Below, piece by piece: positions 3,327 through 15,888 of a stretch of 32,602 nt of DNA. A model generated the notes under the pieces. That model made no database searches and was not told the origin of the DNA. It saw only the letters and a list, made by a program, of their open reading frames with translations. Source of the DNA: a virus. Taxonomy: Duplodnaviria > Caudoviricetes. The stretch spans positions 1 through 32,602 of the IMG/VR virus record IMGVR_UViG_3300048572_000010; one strand, given 5' to 3'. Position numbers and translations under genes: made by a program. Position 1 is the first letter of the stretch. Each line of letters opens with the position of its first letter.

Positions 3327-4604
3327 ATGGCATACATTGGCGCAGTCGCACCTGGTTACGACCCAACAAGAGCTAGTGTCCCTCAGTTAGATGCTGAGCG
3401 ATTTAGTGGTGATGCTTCGACTACAGCATTTACTCTTGCAAGACAGGTTGTATCTCCAACAGATATTGATGTTGTTGTTGAGAATGTTACACAAGAACCA
3501 ACCGTTTCTTATTCAGTCAATGGTTATACTTTAACTTTTACAGAAGCACCAGGATCAGGTACTAATAACATCTATGTTATTTACCGTGGTTCTGGCATAT
3601 CGAACTATGCATTTGTTCCAGATGGCTCAATCACATATGCAAAACTCGCAAACAATATCAAACAATTTACTGTTGATGCCGTTACTGCAAATGGTACAGG
3701 AACAACAGTAGAACTTACAGAAGCACCTGCATCTGCAAACTCTATTATAGTTTCAGTTGATGGTGTTATTCAAACTGCACCAACAAACTACACTTTGTCT
3801 GGTAGCACAATTACATTTACAGGCACACCAGATAACGGTGCGAATGTTGTAGTAAGACATATTGGATTTAGAACAACTTCAACTGTTACTGCATTACAGG
3901 CAAGTTCAGTTACCGCAACAGAAATCGCAGATGGTTCTATTACTAATGCGAAAATTGTTTCAGTTGCAAATACAAAGATTAGTGGTAATATTGTTAGCTC
4001 ACAGATTACATCGGTGGCTAATACTCAGATTACTGGTACAATCTCAGTAGCGAATACTGCAATCACTGGTAACATTATTAGCTCACAAATCACACCTAAT
4101 CCTACACTATATGGTAATGTTTCTGTTACTGGTGTTATTGGAGTAGGTGGTGCTACACCATCTACAAGTGGTTCTGGTATTACATTTCCTGCATCTCAAT
4201 CAGCATCATCCAATGCAAACACGCTTGATGATTATGAAGAAGGAACTTGGACACCAACTATTTCTGGTGGATATACAGGAGTAACTTATGCCGCTCAACA
4301 TGGATGGTATACAAAAGCTGGTAGATTTGTAAATATTTCTGCCCGAATTCAATTTAGTGGTACTGCAAATGCTAGTGCATTTTCAATTATAGGATTGCCA
4401 TTTTCACAGGGCAATATTGGTGGCGGTGCTTATGGCGGTGGTGGTATTCCATATTCAAGTCTTGCTGTAATTACAAACACTAGCCCATATTGCTCAGGAA
4501 ATACTGTTGAATACTACACAATGGGTACTGGTACACAAATAACTTCATCAGGAAATGCGTCTTCCAGCTGGATTAGTTTTGTAATCACTATTGCAACGGA
4601 CTAA
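3327..4604 (+). CDS. Tail fibre / receptor-binding protein (MAYIG N-terminus, two repeated beta modules, DDYEEGTWTP-type tip)
   Basis: Two ~65 aa repeats (FSGDASTTAFTL..V.VENVTQEP..Y..G.TLTFTEAP and ANGTGTTVEL..VSVDGVIQTAP..Y..G.TITFTGTP), a SVANT linker and a C-terminal NTLDDYEEGTWTP...GWYTKAGRFV domain. Confidence 0.75.
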   Translation: MAYIGAVAPGYDPTRASVPQLDAERFSGDASTTAFTLARQVVSPTDIDVVVENVTQEPTVSYSVNGYTLTFTEAPGSGTNNIYVIYRGSGISNYAFVPDGSITYAKLANNIKQFTVDAVTANGTGTTVELTEAPASANSIIVSVDGVIQTAPTNYTLSGSTITFTGTPDNGANVVVRHIGFRTTSTVTALQASSVTATEIADGSITNAKIVSVANTKISGNIVSSQITSVANTQITGTISVANTAITGNIISSQITPNPTLYGNVSVTGVIGVGGATPSTSGSGITFPASQSASSNANTLDDYEEGTWTPTISGGYTGVTYAAQHGWYTKAGRFVNISARIQFSGTANASAFSIIGLPFSQGNIGGGAYGGGGIPYSSLAVITNTSPYCSGNTVEYYTMGTGTQITSSGNASSSWISFVITIATD

Positions 4605-6115: not shown

Positions 6116-7036
6116 ATGGTAGCAACGGTAAACGCATCAACATCAGCAGGCGTAGTTATTACTCCTGATAATTCTGGTGTATTAGCATTTCAGTCCTCTA
6201 GTGCTACGGCTTTAACAATAGATGCTTCACAGAATGTGGGGATTGGAACAACCTCTATTGCTGATACTTCATCAACGGGGAAAGTGTTTGAAATATACGG
6301 TGGCGCAAATGCCGCACATATACACTTTACAAACTCTGCAACTGGGCAGACGGCTGGCGATGGGTTTATTATTGGTACATCAGTTGGTGGAAGCGATGCG
6401 CTATTAATTCAGCGTGAGTCTGCAAACATGATTTTTAGAACAGCAGATACAGAGCGTATGCGTATCGACTCCAGCGGTAACTCATGGTTTCGTACTACTG
6501 GTTCAACAGAAACATGGGTTGCTACTACTGGTACATACGCAAAAATTGGTGATGCGACTTATCCAATAGGGACAACAGCACCAGGTCTTAACATGATTCT
6601 TAATAGAAATACCTCAACAGGTCAAATTCTAGAATTTAAATACAACGGAACGGCTGTTGGTACTGTATCTGTAACTGGTTCTGCTACTGCTTATAACACT
6701 TCATCCGACTATCGACTAAAAGAAAACATCGCACCAATAATTGGAGCGTTAACTAAAGTTGCTCAATTAAAACCTGTTACATATAAATGGAAAGTTGATG
6801 GCTCTGATGGTGAAGGATTTATAGCGCATGAATTGGCAGAAGTATTTCCACAAGCAGTTGACGGAACTAAAGATGCTGTTGATGAAAATGGAAAACCAAT
6901 CCATCAAGGCATTGATGTTTCATTCCTAGTAGCCACACTAACTGCTGCTATACAAGAACTAAAAGCAATAAACGACACACAAGCCGAAACAATCAACGCA
7001 CTAACCGCCCGAATCGTGGCGCTGGAGACAATATAA
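6116..7036 (+). CDS. Tail fibre/spike protein with C-terminal peptidase S74 intramolecular chaperone
   Basis: TSSDYRLKENI auto-cleavage motif, GFIAHE motif and C-terminal coiled coil AIQELKA...; the shaft has VGIGTT and ERMRIDSSGN motifs. Confidence 0.8.
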   Translation: MVATVNASTSAGVVITPDNSGVLAFQSSSATALTIDASQNVGIGTTSIADTSSTGKVFEIYGGANAAHIHFTNSATGQTAGDGFIIGTSVGGSDALLIQRESANMIFRTADTERMRIDSSGNSWFRTTGSTETWVATTGTYAKIGDATYPIGTTAPGLNMILNRNTSTGQILEFKYNGTAVGTVSVTGSATAYNTSSDYRLKENIAPIIGALTKVAQLKPVTYKWKVDGSDGEGFIAHELAEVFPQAVDGTKDAVDENGKPIHQGIDVSFLVATLTAAIQELKAINDTQAETINALTARIVALETI

Positions 7037-7040
7037 TATG
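6953..7040 (+). repeat. 88-bp direct repeat, copy 1 (copy 2 at 13904..13991)
   Basis: Manual alignment gives 84/88 identity. Covers the end of the S74 gene, its stop and the next ATG. Confidence 0.9.
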
Positions 7041-8429: not shown

Positions 8430-9221
8430 GTGTCCCTTACGAAAGTTTCGCCTTCTTTATTCGCAACAACGAATAATATAACTTCAGTCACCGTTGGTGG
8501 CTCCGCTAATACCATTTCGTTAACATTTGATGGTAGTGGTGTTATCACATCTGCAACAAACAATGCGGTAAGTGTTGCGAATACTGCAATCACTGGTAAC
8601 ATAATTAGCTCACAGATTACTTCTGTTGCCAATACTCAGATTACTGGTAATATTACTGCGGCTCAGATTACATCGGTTGCTAATACTCAGTTGACTGGTC
8701 TGATTCAAGCTGCACAAATTGGGTCAGCTAATGCTACTTTGATTACTTCTGGTACATTACCAGGAACTAGATTACCTGCTGGTAGTGTGTTGCAGGTAGT
8801 ACAGAATACAACATCAACTACCGCAAGCACTAGTTCATCTGCTTCATATGTAGATAGTAATTTAACTGCATCAATAACTCCAACAAGTGCAACAAGTAAA
8901 ATTCTTGTTATAGTAATGCAAGGAATGCAAGTCACCAACCAAAGCAATCCTTATGCAACTGGTATGTGGCAGTTATTAAGAGGCGCAACTGCCATATATG
9001 CGCCCAATTCAACTGATAACGGAAACATATTTGCCTATGATTACGGTGGTTCTGGAATAAATGTATTCAGACCAACTCCACTCACATGGCTTGATTCTCC
9101 AAATACAACAAGTTCCACTACATACAAAACACAATTTAAATTAGGAACAAATGGAGGCGCTTCAATAACAGCAAATCCTGGCGCACCTTCATCTATTACT
9201 CTTATGGAGATAGCCGCATGA
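8430..9221 (+). CDS. Fibre / receptor-binding protein (GTG start, SVANT linker, GSVLQVV...ITLMEIAA tip)
   Basis: GAGAG upstream of the GTG; three SVANT repeats; tip paralogous to 5198..5809. Confidence 0.7.
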   Translation: MSLTKVSPSLFATTNNITSVTVGGSANTISLTFDGSGVITSATNNAVSVANTAITGNIISSQITSVANTQITGNITAAQITSVANTQLTGLIQAAQIGSANATLITSGTLPGTRLPAGSVLQVVQNTTSTTASTSSSASYVDSNLTASITPTSATSKILVIVMQGMQVTNQSNPYATGMWQLLRGATAIYAPNSTDNGNIFAYDYGGSGINVFRPTPLTWLDSPNTTSSTTYKTQFKLGTNGGASITANPGAPSSITLMEIAA

Positions 9222-9499
9222 ACAAATATGATGCAATTTATAAAACTTACACTAATGTTGTTACTATAAATGGCAATGATGCTTTTGATGCTCAAGGCAA
9301 TCCCGTTATCTACAATGAAGCCACAGTTCAAGCCTACATTGATTCTCAAGCATACATAGAAAATCGTCAGCGTGAATATCCTTTACTCGCAGATTTGGCG
9401 GATGCACTATATCATCAATCTAAAGGTGACGAAACTAAGTTGACTGCATATCTCGCAAAATGTGAAGCAGTTAAGACTAAGTATCCTAAATCATCATAA
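9218..9499 (+). CDS. Small fibre partner / putative chaperone
   Basis: ATGA-coupled; paralog of 5806..6078 (shared DAFDAQGNPV.YNEATVQAYID). Confidence 0.65.
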   Translation: MNKYDAIYKTYTNVVTINGNDAFDAQGNPVIYNEATVQAYIDSQAYIENRQREYPLLADLADALYHQSKGDETKLTAYLAKCEAVKTKYPKSS

Positions 9500-9502
9500 A
9501 TA
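9495..9502 (+). promoter_or_regulatory. Late promoter-like CATAAATA
   Basis: One mismatch to the consensus; overlaps the upstream stop and precedes the endonuclease gene. Confidence 0.55.
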
Positions 9503-9524: not shown

Positions 9525-10169
9525 TTGTCTGTAGCACACCTTTATAAAATAACCAATAAACTAACTGATGAGTATTATATTGGTAAACATAATGGTTTGG
9601 ATCAAAAAAAGTCAAACGGATATTTATATTGGGGTTCTGGTGACAGAATCCGCAATCAAGTAAAGAAACATGGTGCTGATAATTTTAGATATGAAGTTTT
9701 AGTTATAAGCACACCAGAATACATCTATGAATTAGAAGGAAAAATGGTAACATTGAATTTGATTGAATCTGATAATAAGTGTTTAAATTTAAAGGGTGGT
9801 GGCTATGGCGCAAAATATACATCAGAACAAACTAAGAAAAAAATTATTTTAAAAAATTCTGGTAAAATAAGGTCCGAAGAAACCAAAGAAAAGATTAGAG
9901 TTGCAAGAGCAAAACAAGTTTTTACAAAAGAACAAAGAGATAGAGCTAATAAAACAATATCAACTTTAGTTTGGATGAATGATGGTGAAAAAAGTTACAG
10001 AATTAGACCAGAAAATATTCAAGTGTCTAAAGAAAAAGGTATGGTTGAAGGTCGAATAAAAGACTACATAAATACCGAATACAGAAACAAATTTAAAACA
10101 TATGCCAAAGAACAATGGCAAAAAGTTAAAGAAACCGGTCATATAGGCCATTTAATTAAGGTGAACTAA
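9525..10169 (+). CDS. Free-standing GIY-YIG homing endonuclease (Seg-like)
   Basis: HLYKITNKLTDEYYIGKH (GIY-YIG), YWGSG, catalytic-region ELE and CLNLKGGG, NUMOD3-like RSEETKEKIR repeats and a WMNDG motif. TTG start with AGGA SD. Confidence 0.85.
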   Translation: MSVAHLYKITNKLTDEYYIGKHNGLDQKKSNGYLYWGSGDRIRNQVKKHGADNFRYEVLVISTPEYIYELEGKMVTLNLIESDNKCLNLKGGGYGAKYTSEQTKKKIILKNSGKIRSEETKEKIRVARAKQVFTKEQRDRANKTISTLVWMNDGEKSYRIRPENIQVSKEKGMVEGRIKDYINTEYRNKFKTYAKEQWQKVKETGHIGHLIKVN

Positions 10170-10170
10170 A

Positions 10171-10593
10171 ATTTCTTATCTTGGCAACTCTCCGGTAAGT
10201 GGTGCAATACGAAGTCAGTTCTTTTCAGGAACAGGCTCAACCACAACTTTCAATTTAGCACATGAATATGGCAATGAAGCATCTGTATTAGTCTTTATCA
10301 CTGGTGTTAAACAGAAGACTGATTCATATGCGGTAATCAATGGTCAAATAGTTTTTACAACTGCACCGCCAAGTGCAACAGATAACATTGAAGTTATTTA
10401 CCTTGGTGGTTCTGTCGTAACCACACCTTATTTGGCAGCAGATACATATGGTATAGTCAGAATAAATGCTTCTACATTAACAACCAATGTCAGCATCACA
10501 ACAGGTTATAATGCGTCCTCTGCCGGCCCTTTAACAATCGCAAACAATGTTACTGTAACGGTGGCAAATAATTCCACTTGGACAATATTTTAA
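10171..10593 (+). CDS. Adaptor-like virion protein with apparent ATT start (missed by the ORF track), 140 aa
   Basis: Translates (I)SYLGNSPVSGAIRSQFFSGTGSTTTFNL...VFITGVKQ..Y....QIVFTTAP...SAGPLTIANNVTVTVANNSTWTIF*. The N-part is paralogous to 3327 (MAYIG.., FSGDASTTAFTL) and the C-part to 4894. In-frame TGA at 10162; SD TAAGGTGA 6 nt before the ATT. Confidence 0.85.
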   Translation: MSYLGNSPVSGAIRSQFFSGTGSTTTFNLAHEYGNEASVLVFITGVKQKTDSYAVINGQIVFTTAPPSATDNIEVIYLGGSVVTTPYLAADTYGIVRINASTLTTNVSITTGYNASSAGPLTIANNVTVTVANNSTWTIF

Positions 10594-10601
10594 GGTAAAA
10601 A

Positions 10602-11963
10602 ATGGCTGGTAAATTAATAGTTGATACGATTGATACAGATAATGCGTTTATAACATTAAACGTACAGCAATCTCAAATTGCTACCATGAATGTTTCTGGT
10701 ATCTTTAGCAATACTGGTGTTAAGATGATTGGTGCCAATGGTACTGTAAGTAATACTGCAATCACTGGTTTAGTTACAGCATCTCAAATTGCTAATGTTG
10801 CTAATACACAACTGACTGGTACAATTACCGGTTCACAAATCTCCAGTAACACTTTAAGTAATACAGTTTTCCAGACCGGTTCTGTTGAAAACTATATGAA
10901 TTCACAAAATTTGGGATTTGGTATGAGGAACCGCATCATCAATGGTGCGATGGTGATTGACCAGAGAAACGCAGGGGCTAGTGTTACTATACCTACCATT
11001 AACCCACAGTACACATTAGACCGATGGGCTATACAGTCTTCTCAAACGTCAAAAATATCAATACAACAAAACGCAGGCGCAGTAACACCTCCAACTGGTT
11101 TTACTAAATATCTTGGGGCAACTTCTTTATCTGCGTATTCTGTTTTAAGTGGTGATTATTTTTCTATTAGGCAATGTATTGAGGGGTTTAATATTGCAGA
11201 TTTAGGTTGGGGTGCGGCTGGCGCATCATCAGTTACTTTATCGTTTTGGGTGTATTCAAGTTTGACAGGGACTTTTGGCGGTTCTCTTACAAACAACACA
11301 TTTGTTTATTCTTATCCATTTACATACACAATATCATCAGCAAATACTTGGGAACAAAAAACATTAACTGTCGCTGGTCCAACAGCAGGAACTTGGGAAA
11401 CAGGTAGTAGTGCTGGTATATATATTACTTTAGGTCTTGGTGTTGGTTCTACATACAGCGGAACAGCAGGGGCATGGGCGGCATCAGGTTATCTCTCAGC
11501 CACAGGCGCTACATCAGTAGTAGCAACAAATGGCGCAACTTTCTACATCACAGGCGTACAACTAGAAAAAGGCAGTACAGCAACGAGTTTTGATTACAGA
11601 CCTTATGGTACGGAAGAGAGTTTGTGCCAGCGGTATTATTACAAAACAAAAGCGGCAACTAGTAGTGATTTGTTTGCTGTTGGTTGGTGCGTTTCTACAA
11701 CTGTTGCCGCAGTAAGCGTACCATTTCCTGTATCAATGAGAACTAACCCGACTGCACTAGAACAATCGGGTACTGCGGCTAATTATCAAACTGTTTTTGC
11801 GGCATCTGCGGCTGCTTTATCTGCCGTTCCTGTATTTACAACAGCTTCTACAAATAGTGCAAGGGTTGAATGTACAGTAGCAAGTGGCTTAACTGCTGGT
11901 CAAGGAGTGGGATTAAGGGCTGGTTCAACATCTGCATACTTAGCATGGAGTGCCGAATTATGA
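10602..11963 (+). CDS. Receptor-binding protein with carbohydrate-binding-like domain (RNRIINGAM...CQRYY)
   Basis: MAGKLIVDTI N-terminus, a VANT linker, a central domain paralogous to 13989..15293 and a divergent tip after CQRYY, ending SAEL. Confidence 0.75.
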   Translation: MAGKLIVDTIDTDNAFITLNVQQSQIATMNVSGIFSNTGVKMIGANGTVSNTAITGLVTASQIANVANTQLTGTITGSQISSNTLSNTVFQTGSVENYMNSQNLGFGMRNRIINGAMVIDQRNAGASVTIPTINPQYTLDRWAIQSSQTSKISIQQNAGAVTPPTGFTKYLGATSLSAYSVLSGDYFSIRQCIEGFNIADLGWGAAGASSVTLSFWVYSSLTGTFGGSLTNNTFVYSYPFTYTISSANTWEQKTLTVAGPTAGTWETGSSAGIYITLGLGVGSTYSGTAGAWAASGYLSATGATSVVATNGATFYITGVQLEKGSTATSFDYRPYGTEESLCQRYYYKTKAATSSDLFAVGWCVSTTVAAVSVPFPVSMRTNPTALEQSGTAANYQTVFAASAAALSAVPVFTTASTNSARVECTVASGLTAGQGVGLRAGSTSAYLAWSAEL

Positions 11964-12121
11964 TTTACAAGTTACTACATAAAACAATGGATGGTGTGCA
12001 AATACTTGCTCGCATTGATGATGACAATGTTTGCCGTCTAACTTGCACAGAACAACATCCAGAATATTTAGCGTGGCTTGAGTTGGGCAACACGCCTACT
12101 CCCGCAGACGAACCAAACTAA
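11960..12121 (+). CDS. Small fibre partner / putative chaperone (EYLAWL..GNTP.PAD)
   Basis: The ATG at 11960 overlaps the TGA of the upstream fibre gene and is preferred over the track start 11870. 53 aa; paralog of 15296..15448. Confidence 0.7.
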   Translation: MIYKLLHKTMDGVQILARIDDDNVCRLTCTEQHPEYLAWLELGNTPTPADEPN

Positions 12122-12124
12122 ATA
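12117..12124 (+). promoter_or_regulatory. Late promoter-like ACTAAATA
   Basis: TAAATA core overlapping a stop. The same octamer precedes gp18 and the gp67-like gene. Only 7 nt from the ATG, so the transcript would be almost leaderless. Confidence 0.35.
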
Positions 12125-12131
12125 AAATACC

Positions 12132-12773
12132 ATGAACCACTATGTTTATTTAATTGAAAAGAAAAACACTTTATCCAATCAACAGAAATATTACATAGGT
12201 GTTCGTAGTTGTGAAGGATTGATAGGTAATGATTCTTATATGGGGTCATCTAAATACCTAACAGAAGAAGTTGAAACATTGGGTGTAGACCAGTTCAATA
12301 AGATTATATTGAAAAGGTTTAGTAATAGAATGGATGCTAATCTATATGAAATTGAGATGCATGATTTTTTTGATGTTGCCAATAATACCCTTTTTTTCAA
12401 TAGAGTAAAACAAAAAGACAGAGGTTTAGGTGTAGGACCAGGTGAATTAAATCCTTTTTATGGTAAAAAACATACATTAGAATCTCGCCGAAAAATGAGT
12501 GAGATTCTAAAGACGAAAGATTGTAGAGCTAAAACTACAAACAAAGGTAAGAAATTTCCTGAAGTTGGTAAAAAAATATCAGCAGCAAGAAAAGAATGGT
12601 TTAAAACAAATCCACATCCAATGTTGGGTGTGAAAAGAACAAAAGAAATGCAAATAAATAACTCGTTAGGTGCTTTAAATCAACAGAAACATGAATGTGT
12701 TTACTGTGGTGTTGTTACTATTGCTGGTAACATTAAAAGATGGCACAATGATAATTGCAAGGATAAAGGTTAA
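12132..12773 (+). CDS. Free-standing GIY-YIG homing endonuclease with NUMOD3 and C-terminal zinc-ribbon-like motif
   Basis: HYVYLIE...KYYIGVRSC, YMGSS, FFN, NPFYGKKHTLESRRKMS (NUMOD3) and CVYCG...RWHNDNCK. Confidence 0.85.
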   Translation: MNHYVYLIEKKNTLSNQQKYYIGVRSCEGLIGNDSYMGSSKYLTEEVETLGVDQFNKIILKRFSNRMDANLYEIEMHDFFDVANNTLFFNRVKQKDRGLGVGPGELNPFYGKKHTLESRRKMSEILKTKDCRAKTTNKGKKFPEVGKKISAARKEWFKTNPHPMLGVKRTKEMQINNSLGALNQQKHECVYCGVVTIAGNIKRWHNDNCKDKG

Positions 12774-12775
12774 CC

Positions 12776-13987
12776 ATGGCAGGACAAATTAAAGTTGATA
12801 GTATAAATGCTGATTCCAATCTTGCGTTAAAGATTGCGAATACTGCCGTTGCTTTCATTGATGCAACTGGTTTAAGACCAACTAGTGGTAATGTTAACCT
12901 AGATGCTACTGCAACATCAAAACTTTATTTACCATCAGCAAACACAGTAGCAATTCAAACTGCTGGTGTTACCGGATTGAGCATAAGTTCATCGCAAGTG
13001 GTGACATTGGCTAACGCTCTACCTGTTACCTCTGGTGGTACGGGAGTAACGACTTCTACGGGTACGGGTGCGGTTGTATTAGGAACTAGCCCTACGATTA
13101 CAACTCCGACTATCAGTTCGCTTTCATCTGCATCTGCTACTGCGCTAACTTTGCAGTCTGCTGGCACTACTGCGATTACTGTTGATACTTCACAGAATGT
13201 GGGGGTTGGTACTACTAGTCCCTCTACTTATGGAAAATTAGTTTCTTTTGCAGGTGATATTGCCGCAGTTAAAGCGCATGGCTCAGGGTCATATCCAACT
13301 TTAGTTTTGCAAAATGCAACGGCAGGAACTACATTCAGCGGTCGTGTTTTATGGAAAGATGGTAATGGTAATGCTGGTTGGAATGTTGGTCAAAATGTAG
13401 CCGTAGGTAGCGGATATTTAGAATTTAATGATGGTGCTACTAACAGAATGTGTATTGACTCTAGCGGTCATGTGATGATAGGGTCTACAAGCGTTCCAGC
13501 TTTTGGAGCTGGACCACCATTGTTTGTGAAAGCCGATGGTAATGGTATCTCAGTAGGTTATGGAACCTCCTCTACTCAATACAGAATATTCTATTTTAAT
13601 GCTGGTGATGCCACTATGTATGTTCATAATGGTAGTAACTATGCTTCGTTGTCTGCCGCTGGCGCATGGACAAATGCTTCTGATGTAAGACTGAAAAAGA
13701 ACATTGTTGATATTAAATATGGTCTTGCTGATGTAGTAAAGATGCAACCTAGAAGTTATCAGATGAATGATGTTGCTGGTGACTTTGTGGGTTTTGTTGC
13801 ACAAGAACTTCAAACAGTAATTCCAGAAGTTGTATCTGGTGATCCAGAAAAACAACTTGGTGTTGACTATGGTTCTCTTGTTGCTGTTGCATTTAAAGCA
13901 ATCCAAGAACTAAAAGCAATAAACGACACACAAGCCGAAACAATCACCGCACTAACCGCCCGCATCGTGGCTTTGGAGACAATATAA
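12776..13987 (+). CDS. Tail fibre/spike protein with C-terminal peptidase S74 chaperone
   Basis: MAGQIKVDSI N-terminus; VGVGTTSP shaft motif; NASDVRLKKNI; GFVAQEL. The C-terminus is nearly identical to that of 6116..7036. Confidence 0.8.
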   Translation: MAGQIKVDSINADSNLALKIANTAVAFIDATGLRPTSGNVNLDATATSKLYLPSANTVAIQTAGVTGLSISSSQVVTLANALPVTSGGTGVTTSTGTGAVVLGTSPTITTPTISSLSSASATALTLQSAGTTAITVDTSQNVGVGTTSPSTYGKLVSFAGDIAAVKAHGSGSYPTLVLQNATAGTTFSGRVLWKDGNGNAGWNVGQNVAVGSGYLEFNDGATNRMCIDSSGHVMIGSTSVPAFGAGPPLFVKADGNGISVGYGTSSTQYRIFYFNAGDATMYVHNGSNYASLSAAGAWTNASDVRLKKNIVDIKYGLADVVKMQPRSYQMNDVAGDFVGFVAQELQTVIPEVVSGDPEKQLGVDYGSLVAVAFKAIQELKAINDTQAETITALTARIVALETI

Positions 13988-13991
13988 TATG
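13904..13991 (+). repeat. 88-bp direct repeat, copy 2 (copy 1 at 6953..7040)
   Basis: 84/88 identity by manual alignment. Confidence 0.9.
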
Positions 13992-15293
13992 GCCGGTTCA
14001 ATAACAGTAAGTTCGATTACACTAGATTCGGATAATAACTTCAGTATTAAGAGTAATACTGGTGCTACACTATTCTTTGCTAATACAAGTGGTGTTGATA
14101 TTGCCAACTCTATTGGTGCTACTGCAATTACAAGTGACAAAATTCTTTCTATTGCAAACACAAAGATTAGTGGCAACATCATTAGCTCACAGATTGCCTC
14201 TGTCAATGGTTCTGTAATCACAGCAAACACAATTGCTAACTCAGCAATTCAAACTGGTGCTGTTGAGAACTATATGAATGCTGCGGGTCTTGGTTTTGGT
14301 ATGAGGAACAGAATCATCAATGGTGCGATGGTAATTGACCAGCGTAATGCGGGGGCTAGTGTTACTAATACAACATCTAATTTGTATGTAACAGATAGAT
14401 GGAATATTTATGGACAACAAGCAAGTAAATTTACAGCACAGCAAAATGCTGGTTCTGTAACACCACCAACAGGATTTAAAAATTATTTAGGAATAACCTC
14501 ATCTTCTGCATATACAGTTCTTAGTGGTGATAACTTTAAAGTTTTGCAACCGATAGAAGGATATAACTTTGCGGATATGGGTTGGGGTGCGGCTGGTGCA
14601 TCATCAGTAACTTTATCCTTTTGGGTGCGCTCTAGTCTTACTGGAACATTTGGTGGTTCATTTACTAATTCATCATATAACCGCTCTTATCCATTCACTT
14701 ACACAATTAGTTCTGCAAATACTTGGGAACAAAAAACTGTAACTATTGCTGGCGATACTAGCGGAACATGGCTTACAACAAATGGCATTGGTGTTAATGT
14801 TATTTTTAGTATGGGAATGGGTACAGACCAAAGTGGGACTGCTGGTGCATGGGCTGGCGCAAACTATCAATCCGCAACTGGTGCAGTCTCTGTTGTAGGT
14901 ACTAATGGTGCTACTTGGTACATCACAGGCGTACAACTAGAAAAAGGCAGTACCGCAACATCTTTTGATTACAGACCTTATGGTACTGAGTTGGCTTTGT
15001 GTCAGAGGTATTATGAAATTATTGCGCCAGTTCAAGCTAGTTTTCTGATTTCAGTAAATGCAACTGCGTCAACGCAAGAATTTGAGTTTCTTATAAAGTA
15101 TTTGGTACTGAAAAGGGCTACGGCAACAGTAACACGGGTTGGAACTTGGACTGACTCTAACTCCACTGGTGTTGTGCCTTTAACATTTGGCACAGATTTA
15201 TTTTGTTTGGCATTGTTTTCTAGTGGTTCAGGAAGATGTTACACCTACAACACTGGTAGTGGTTCTTGTTTTACTGCTTCTGCGGAGTTATAA
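13989..15293 (+). CDS. Receptor-binding protein with carbohydrate-binding-like domain, paralog of 10602..11963
   Basis: [11 protein letters not shown]-terminus; shared [27 protein letters not shown] ... [30 protein letters not shown]; different tip; ends SAEL. Confidence 0.75.
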
Positions 15294-15295
15294 AA

Positions 15296-15448
15296 ATGTA
15301 TAAACTATTTAAAAATTCAGTAGGTTTAGAGTTTGTTCAGCGTTTGTCTGATGGTGCTTTCATACCTTTCGATAACGCTAACACAGACTACGCTGAATAT
15401 TTGAAGTGGGTGGCTGAAGGCAATACACCAGAACCTGCTGACGAATAA
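15296..15448 (+). CDS. Small fibre partner / putative chaperone (IPFD.ANTDY.EYL.W...GNTP.PAD)
   Basis: ATG at 15296, two bases after the upstream stop, with GGAG SD; preferred over the track start 15266. 50 aa. Confidence 0.7.
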
Positions 15449-15467
15449 ACAATCGTCACTCAAATAT

Positions 15468-15494
15468 AGCCCCACTTCGGTGGGGTTTTTTATT
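15468..15494 (+). terminator. Rho-independent terminator with C(UUCG)G tetraloop
   Basis: AGCCCCAC-TTCG-GTGGGGTT followed by a T tract; closes the RBP array. Confidence 0.9.
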
Positions 15495-15512
15495 GCCTTA
15501 GTTTCGGTAAGA

Positions 15513-15520
15513 CATAAATA
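15513..15520 (+). promoter_or_regulatory. Late promoter-like CATAAATA
   Basis: Just downstream of the terminator and upstream of the GAGGAG SD at 15543..15548. Confidence 0.65.
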
Positions 15521-15555
15521 GAACATAATATTAATATTACCCGAGGAGAACTAAA

Positions 15556-15888
15556 ATCGCAGGTTTTGCCGAAATCAATATTGAGCAGGGTGCGTCCTTC
15601 TCAACTGTAATCACCGTTAATGATTCTACCGGTGCTTTCACAAATCTTACAAGTTATACCGCTGCGGCTCAACTTCGTAAGTCATACTACTCATCGACCG
15701 CAAATAATTTTACTGTAACAGTCAGTAATGCGGCCAATGGAGAAATTACTATGGCTATGACAGCAGCCAATACTGCAAATCTAACTCCTGGTAGAATGTT
15801 ATATGACCTCCTTATTACCAGTCCAACAAGTGTTAAAACTAGGGTAGTTGAAGGCATTGCAACTATTCTTCCTTCTGTTACACGATAA
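15556..15888 (+). CDS. Small Ig-like/BppU-N-like virion protein with apparent ATC start (missed by the ORF track), 110 aa
   Basis: Translates (I)AGFAEINIEQGASFSTVITV...NLTSYTAAAQLRKSYYSS...GEITMAMTAANTANLTPGRMLYDLLI..KTRVVEGIATILPSVTR*, a sequence type familiar from T4-like phages. In-frame TAA at 15532; SD GAGGAG 7 nt before the ATC; TAATG overlap with the next gene. Confidence 0.85.
   Translation: MAGFAEINIEQGASFSTVITVNDSTGAFTNLTSYTAAAQLRKSYYSSTANNFTVTVSNAANGEITMAMTAANTANLTPGRMLYDLLITSPTSVKTRVVEGIATILPSVTR

Follow-up and report, generated by a model that had tools for sequence, protein, structure and literature searches.

Two putative fibre-attachment genes of a T4-like phage very likely begin at isoleucine codons behind ordinary strong ribosome-binding sites

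In the common view, selection favours AUG as the bacterial start codon, and starts at isoleucine (Ile) codons are confined to a few regulators. Described examples are infC (AUU/AUC) and pcnB (AUU) of E. coli as well as infC, cvfC1, ccpN and citZ of S. aureus, which are reported to use AUA or AUU behind an extended Shine-Dalgarno (SD) sequence, with about 10% of AUG output for AUU/AUA starts of this kind (PMC13009471). Belinky, Rogozin and Koonin (2017; PMC5622118) describe selection towards AUG with one AUG-to-AUU switch in 61,358 annotation-based starts, and report that weaker codons are compensated by a stronger SD and favourable bases at positions −1 to −3. Here we analyse a stretch of 32,602 nucleotides (referred to as the window), which represents the complete 32.6-kb virus record IMGVR_UViG_3300048572_000010 and carries the late structural region of a T4-like phage, comprising fibre genes, neck proteins, sheath and tube. 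Two of its open reading frames (ORFs), ORF A and ORF B, very likely begin at ATT and ATC, respectively, behind ordinary strong ribosome-binding sites (RBSs).

As in the infC/pcnB type, an Ile codon occupies the homologous start position behind a strong SD with no usable canonical start nearby, and reduced output together with the normal initiation machinery is likely common to those genes and the phage starts. Unlike infC, however, the phage genes are structural and lack a feedback logic like the autoregulation of initiation factor 3 (IF3), and their start codon is not fixed but flips among ATG, GTG, TTG, ATC, ATT and ATA, Ile codons being present in 42 of 157 loci for ORF B and in 10 of 32 for ORF A. 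The strong SD and the favourable −1 to −3 bases agree with the compensation described in PMC5622118, but in contrast to the general pattern reported there, AUG behind a leader is avoided in the two phage families, which have turned to Ile codons many times. Ordinary virion genes of an abundant group of freshwater phages repeatedly arrived at ATC, ATT or ATA. No published report of Ile starts in phage structural genes was found in the titles and abstracts of a mostly open-access literature. Gene 26 of T4 may have an AUU start; a literature search gave no confirmation of it, and no AUU was found in a review of T4 translation.

The initial annotation had noticed two Ile-codon starts sharing a 14-nucleotide (nt) sequence, and this proved correct. 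GGTGAACTAAAATT is located at 10160-10173 (site A) and GGAGAACTAAAATC at 15545-15558 (site B), no other exact match of the common pattern exists in the window, and in both genes the Ile codon lies exactly where the start codons of the relatives align. The GTG at 8430 and the TTG at 9525 were also found as described. The earliest canonical in-frame codon is codon 88 of 140 in ORF A and codon 66 of 110 in ORF B. Both Ile codons recur in a second, independently assembled contig, whose overlaps with the window agree in 11743 of 11745 and in 6374 of 6375 bases.

To compare start codons, 157 of 160 ORF B loci from two collections were scored (redundant copies included, three cut-off loci omitted). 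First codons were TTG (53), ATG (42), ATC (39), GTG (20) and ATA (3), and no other codon was observed. For ORF A, six weak partial matches out of 39 found were excluded and 32 of the remaining 33 loci scored, yielding ATG (10), TTG (10), ATT (7), ATC (3) and GTG (2). A tree of 47 distinct ORF B alleles contains 17 changes of start class; the Ile starts need nine changes, at least five of which are forced by well-supported branches. The N-terminal codons are under purifying selection, with uncorrected ratios of nonsynonymous to synonymous polymorphism (pN/pS) of 0.03-0.45 for ORF B (11 pairs) and 0.13-0.36 for ORF A (7 pairs).

A further line of evidence comes from the base following the start. 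Not one of the 14 Ile starts preceding G is ATT (ATC 12, ATA 2), whereas internal Ile codons preceding G are ATT in 3313 of 4467 cases (74%); all eight Ile starts preceding T or A are ATT. Over five forced lineages, simple arithmetic gives a chance of approximately 0.26^5 = 0.001 for this avoidance. Even behind one and the same RBS, some ORF A alleles read ATT-TCT and others ATC-GGA. ATT before G is presumably avoided because it would create a canonical UUG one base out of frame. The absence of this combination is good evidence of real initiation at the Ile starts, and offers a simple test, applicable to any genome, by which true Ile starts can be told from noise. The features discussed are compiled in Table 1.

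Table 1: Features of the window around the two isoleucine-codon starts (SD, Shine-Dalgarno sequence; RBS, ribosome-binding site; aa, amino acids).
Feature	Position	Strand	Basis or remark
Fibre gene, GTG start	8430..9221	+	family: GTG in 8/23, ATG in 15/23 distinct starts
Presumed late-promoter core TAAATA (T4-type)	9497..9502	+	T4 consensus
Free-standing GIY-YIG-type homing endonuclease, 214 aa, TTG start	9525..10169	+	PHROG 314, E 1.8e-26
Site A RBS: SD AGGTGA + spacer ACTAAA	10159..10170	+	anti-SD duplex −8.5 kcal/mol
ORF A, 140 aa, probable ATT start, putative tail-fibre adaptor	10171..10593	+	homology to fibre proteins
Second GIY-YIG homing endonuclease, ATG 7 nt behind TAAATA	12132..12773	+	
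Intrinsic-terminator-like hairpin, end of upstream fibre module	15468..15487	+	
Presumed late-promoter core TAAATA, 35 nt 5′ of ORF B	15515..15520	+	
Site B RBS: SD AGGAG + spacer AACTAAA	15544..15555	+	anti-SD duplex −8.9 kcal/mol
ORF B, 110 aa, probable ATC start, putative Ig-like LtfC/p132-type fibre-attachment (collar) protein	15556..15888	+	fold and profile matches

To place both genes among their neighbours, starts were projected from orthologs in 97 families of the clade. Families with at least three members and starts with at least two votes were kept, as single votes produced many false non-canonical calls in antisense frames; 790 of 809 starts were usable after dropping 19 with an upstream canonical codon. 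The projection depends on ATG-starting homologs and misses families that never use ATG. It yielded 708 ATG, 34 TTG, 25 GTG and 23 Ile starts, one of the latter being noise. Rather than being spread over the genome, non-ATG starts are gene-specific and occur mainly in a few fibre-accessory families close to promoters: they account for 37 of 47 starts in ORF B, 20 of 48 in the wider ORF A family, and 8 of 23 in the family of the gene at 8430. Smaller clusters were found for the neck gene gp14 (4 of 18, two of them ATT) and the 10602/13989 family (4 of 22), while sheath, tube, portal and replication genes nearly always start with ATG. In the window itself, the sheath and tube genes are promoter-proximal, carry a strong SD like that of ORF B and have ATG starts. 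The proposal that module-leading genes avoid ATG holds only in part, since ATG heads 10 of 13 genes that have TAAATA no more than 60 nt away, compared to 24 of 25 others. As a side observation, the ATT of gp14 lies behind an SD in the relatives L004 (~5570) and L022 (~2980), and in most other relatives and in the window (22446) gp14 has an ATG just downstream of the gp13 stop.

TAAATA is taken here as late promoter on account of the T4 consensus. ATG starts in a leaderless-type position close behind TAAATA amounted to 51 of 708, whereas none of the 82 other starts was found there. Leaderless mRNAs are reported to require AUG (PMC8459731, PMC4611024), so that this distribution provides a check on the start assignments. 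All ten ATG alleles of ORF A are located 4-7 nt downstream of TAAATA and, judged by the T4 late-promoter consensus, are probably leaderless or nearly so. In contrast, the 22 leadered, SD-led ORF A alleles include no ATG at all, but exclusively TTG, ATT, ATC or GTG. In the window, the ATGs at 12132, 19261 and 24739 are also only 5-7 nt behind TAAATA and likely belong to leaderless late transcripts.

The 14-nt sequence had been taken as the mark of a dedicated initiation system, an idea that found no support. Within the window, exact matches of GGNGAACTAAAATY were restricted to sites A and B (shuffle mean 0.01), a comparison that is post hoc as the pattern was derived from both sites; allowing two mismatches, three matches were obtained versus 2.17 expected. 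A scan of other phages pointed in another direction. Among the 120 phage matches listed, AGGAGAACTAAAAT is followed by G in 94 cases (73 at the head of an ORF), by T in 10 (5), by C in 7 (0) and by A in 9 (0). For AGGTGAACTAAAAT, again among 120 phage matches listed, the next base is G in 39 cases (30 at the head of an ORF), T in 28 (5), C in 23 (2) and A in 30 (5). Since AGGAGAACTAAAAT mostly precedes G in other phages, the motif appears to be a common RBS, consisting of an SD and an A-rich spacer, which elsewhere chiefly serves ATG. Within the clade, the spacer AACTAAA also precedes TTG in three relatives (L453, L455 and L460), and further Ile alleles have the spacers AATTAAA, AATCAAA, AAAGAAA and AAGTAAA. 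What the Ile starts converge on is a looser GGWGAANNAAA, that is, a strong SD followed by AANNAAA. In the mixed families, all 22 Ile starts have an SD of −4 kcal/mol or stronger (median −8.5), and 18 of these 22 carry AAA at −3 to −1, compared to 26 of 231 strong-SD ATG starts and 3 of 32 GTG/TTG starts. In the ORF A family, the SD medians strengthen with the weakness of the codon (−2.8 for ATG, −4.2 for GTG/TTG, −8.5 for Ile). A uniform rule by which a weaker codon has a stronger SD was rejected, as it fails within ORF B.

The two copies of the motif are, as far as their surroundings tell, of separate origin: site A is part of an endonuclease tail, whereas site B is ORF B's own leader. The gene at 9525 encodes a GIY-YIG/NUMOD3-type endonuclease inserted at the start of ORF A, and its last codons (HLIKVN*) contain the RBS of ORF A. 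The endonuclease stop TAA (10167-10169) lies inside the site A motif one base 5′ of ATT 10171, and translational coupling of ORF A to this stop is possible. In the relative L085, which lacks the endonuclease, ORF A has the same 22-nt leader and TTG start as those behind 9497..9502; hence, the endonuclease most likely inserted at the start of ORF A and took its leader over. The RBS in its tail may have been captured by the endonuclease or may have arisen within it. It is optional at this position, being present in the window, L083, L003 and L029 but absent from L085 and L084. The combination of its tail and ATT is found at the head of ORF A in L083, L003 and L029 and, in L541, at that of another fibre gene. 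Moreover, the RBS outlasts the endonuclease, as L107 retains a 9-codon remnant only and L089, L091 and L546 lack the endonuclease. When a GIY-YIG gene lies immediately upstream, 8 of 11 starts (about five lineages) are non-ATG, compared to 74 of 779 others; the gene behind the second endonuclease (12132..12773), which keeps ATG, is a counter-example. In L005, L084, L107, L113 and L099, related GIY-YIG genes were observed immediately after the ORF A stop, where the next fibre gene starts, which indicates that these endonucleases repeatedly target gene starts of the fibre cluster. A comparable arrangement is reported for the free-standing T4 seg/mob endonucleases (PMC2988022), where, as here, a GIY-YIG gene inserted into an operon relies on the signals upstream of it and brings along that of the next gene, in that case the promoter. 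Unlike there, the embedded signal is an RBS with a non-AUG start, and the insertion is at fibre-gene start codons, so that an endonuclease carrying its neighbour's RBS would extend the embedded-promoter trick to translation.

Both genes are presumably connected with fibre attachment. Over 71 amino acids (aa), the N-terminal domain of ORF A shares 39% identity with the N-terminus of the fibre gene at 3327; at its C-terminus, ORF A matches the end of a fibre protein (PHROG 5342). For ORF B in its full length of 110 aa, a single immunoglobulin (Ig)-like beta-sandwich matching LtfC is predicted with a mean local distance difference test score (pLDDT) of 91.7; the best structural match of this model was DT57C LtfC / T5 p132 (Foldseek E 1.4e-8, template modelling score (TM) 0.71), whereas the Pfam PF23926 match reached 21.8 bits, under the cut-off of 27. 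T5 p132 and DT57C LtfC form a dodecameric collar (PDB 7QG9, 8HQZ), reported to hold nine fibre chains with 12 copies (PMC10038345, PMC10713586). ORF B shares with them the Ig-like fold and the position among fibre genes, but differs in having about 20% identity and 110 versus 140 aa, and in belonging to a T4-like myovirus rather than a T5 siphovirus. The proposal that weak starts keep adaptors rare relative to the fibres does not fit this closest solved structure, with 12 LtfC per 9 fibre chains; low copy relative to sheath and tube is plausible. Public gene calls contain ORF B only as C-terminal pieces of 45 or 30 aa, and the full-length forms looked up in a public protein collection were absent. 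By shortening ORF B to 30-45 aa or missing such genes altogether, gene finders lose structural genes from phage annotations.

We consider it probable that the weak starts of ORF A and ORF B are real, under selection and particular to these genes, and that ordinary initiation most likely reads them. ATT 10171 and ATC 15556 would be read by the ordinary host N-formylmethionyl-tRNA (fMet-tRNA) as weak near-cognate starts, which would hold down the output of two few-copy fibre-attachment proteins whose late promoters are strong. The sequence common to both sites would then be the best ordinary RBS, with a strong SD and a 6-7-nt spacer ending in AAA, presumably present because a weak codon needs it to be found at all. 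Sites A and B would have converged, site B being the native leader of ORF B, whereas at site A the endonuclease would have inserted at a fibre-gene start, captured the leader and supplied a new RBS plus ATT via its 3′ end. The third base of the start would protect the frame, with ATC or ATA before G and ATT before T or A. The positions of the codons, their swaps among start-capable codons, the purifying selection on the N-termini, the generic motif and the endonuclease linkage are observed, whereas initiation itself, the tRNA used, the reduced output and the reason for the frame rule are deduced. With their many start alleles, the phages offer a natural series in which to ask whether virion stoichiometry is set by weak starts.

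Several observations weigh against this interpretation. Exact AACTAAA precedes 11 of 20 ATT/ATC starts but none of the 708 ATG starts of the clade sample, an enrichment that favours some context specificity, though those 11 starts derive from approximately two origins. In vitro, translation of non-AUG mRNAs was reported to come close to that of AUG mRNAs under some conditions of temperature and medium (PMC5499595). Furthermore, ATG behind a good SD occurs in 42 of the 157 ORF B loci, some of them in relatives with 90-97% identity, which means that low output is not a strict requirement. Within ORF B, the strength of the SD does not rise with the weakness of the codon (medians −8.25 for ATG, −8.7 for GTG/TTG and −7.95 for Ile), and all eight cultured T4-like phage records (one Methylophilales, two Pelagibacter and five cyanophage) have ATG at ORF B.

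The last three points, together with the frequent flips among four start classes, would also be expected under relaxed selection, if late promoters over-supplied these genes and any initiating codon could drift in with nothing being tuned. We regard this as unlikely. No leadered ORF A allele has ATG, and ORF B starts with a codon other than ATG in 115 of 157 loci, in contrast to the ATG of promoter-led genes nearby. In addition, ACG and CTG never occur, ATA occurs three times and ATT never stands before G, which is not expected from mutation alone.

The initial annotation had further suggested that fibre assembly is gated on IF3 status. Such a gate on the host state, through low IF3 activity or initiation altered by infection and possibly aided by a phage fMet-tRNA, gains some ground from the report that IF3 antagonises AUU/AUC starts and leaderless AUG (PMC4611024), forms that make up 20 of 32 ORF A loci. 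Three relatives also carry tRNA-fMet-like genes which, read by eye, lack the full set of three anticodon-stem G-C pairs. IF3 is, however, reported to accept AUG, GUG and UUG and to reject other start codons (PMC5499595, PMC4611024), and leadered TTG, GTG or ATG starts are found in 12 of 32 ORF A and 115 of 157 ORF B loci. The free exchange of Ile codons with TTG and GTG argues for an effect on the level rather than for gating. Searches for the IF3-C and S21 families were negative in 10 records, with working controls; two of these records are at least 90% complete, both without an Ile start at ORF B. IF3-N and IF1 families were absent from five records; an antagonist of another family would escape all of these searches. 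Taken together, gating is doubtful. The same low weight is given to its fuller version, in which ORF A would occur mostly in IF3-antagonised forms (leaderless AUG, AUU, AUC), infection or an atypical phage fMet-tRNA would loosen late proofreading, and the endonuclease would spread an RBS-plus-AUU cassette among fibre genes, so that fibre attachment depends on initiation fidelity.

For site A, the endonuclease itself might be responsible, either because ATT alters its target at the start codon or because an RBS tied to its end is hard to lose. The excess of non-ATG starts behind GIY-YIG genes, the tail plus ATT heading two fibre genes and the promoters embedded in T4 endonucleases (PMC2988022) are in line with this. 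It is nevertheless very unlikely as the explanation, since ORF B with its own promoter is left unexplained, other endonuclease tails precede TTG, GTG or ATG with the third G always kept, and L089, L091, L107 and L546 retain RBS and Ile start without the endonuclease.

A dedicated phage initiator tRNA with anticodon GAU, reading AUU/AUC at a special motif, had also been proposed and appears highly improbable. The loose context common to the Ile starts would suit it, and four of five long relative records carry near-complete sets of 14-29 tRNAs including tRNA-Ile(GAU). All four GAU tRNAs, however, are of the elongator type as read by eye (paired 1:72, pyrimidine11:purine24, no GGG/CCC anticodon stem), though the ORF B of these four records does not have an Ile start. 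In six records that do carry ATC (17-57% complete), tRNA-Pro was the only tRNA detected, and the window contains no tRNA gene. Neither the three loci with ATA nor the swaps with TTG and GTG could be read by GAU, and the motif mostly precedes ATG elsewhere. Sequencing errors or pseudogenes, which the gene finders' failure to call whole frames might suggest, can be dismissed, as many independently assembled contigs show the same codons, the frames are intact and pN/pS stays clearly under 1.

Regarding the tRNA complement of the relatives, the tRNA-fMet-like genes are located at 4350-4425 in L392 (G003), 5294-5370 in L403 (G005) and 2632-2707 in L412 (G002). They have the anticodon CAU and an initiator-type D stem, and the three anticodon-stem G-C pairs are only partly kept, the middle one in all (by eye). 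In G004, no CAU tRNA was detected in the assembled part. RegA is present in four of five relatives.

RNA structure at both start regions was ordinary (z 0.13 and 0.40), the leader of ORF B in the window contains no upstream ATG mini-frame for coupling, and sigma-70 sites in the window were fewer than in shuffles. Sequencing runs containing the window are mostly freshwater metagenome DNA; six RNA runs hold small shares, as contigs only. For host assignment, four genome-bin matches were obtained, in four unrelated taxa.

Apart from this clade, unrelated large-phage genes in L196, L215, L216 and L239 apparently start at ATT after AGGAGAACTAAA. Three of them belong to one family, and the fourth we take to be neck-like. 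Finally, the 3′ ends of the fibre genes 6116-7036 and 12776-13987 are near-identical (6939-7037 and 13890-13988), each being followed by GGAGACAATATAAT-ATG, and the fibre genes at 10602 and 13989 are paralogous, which suggests shuffling of modules.

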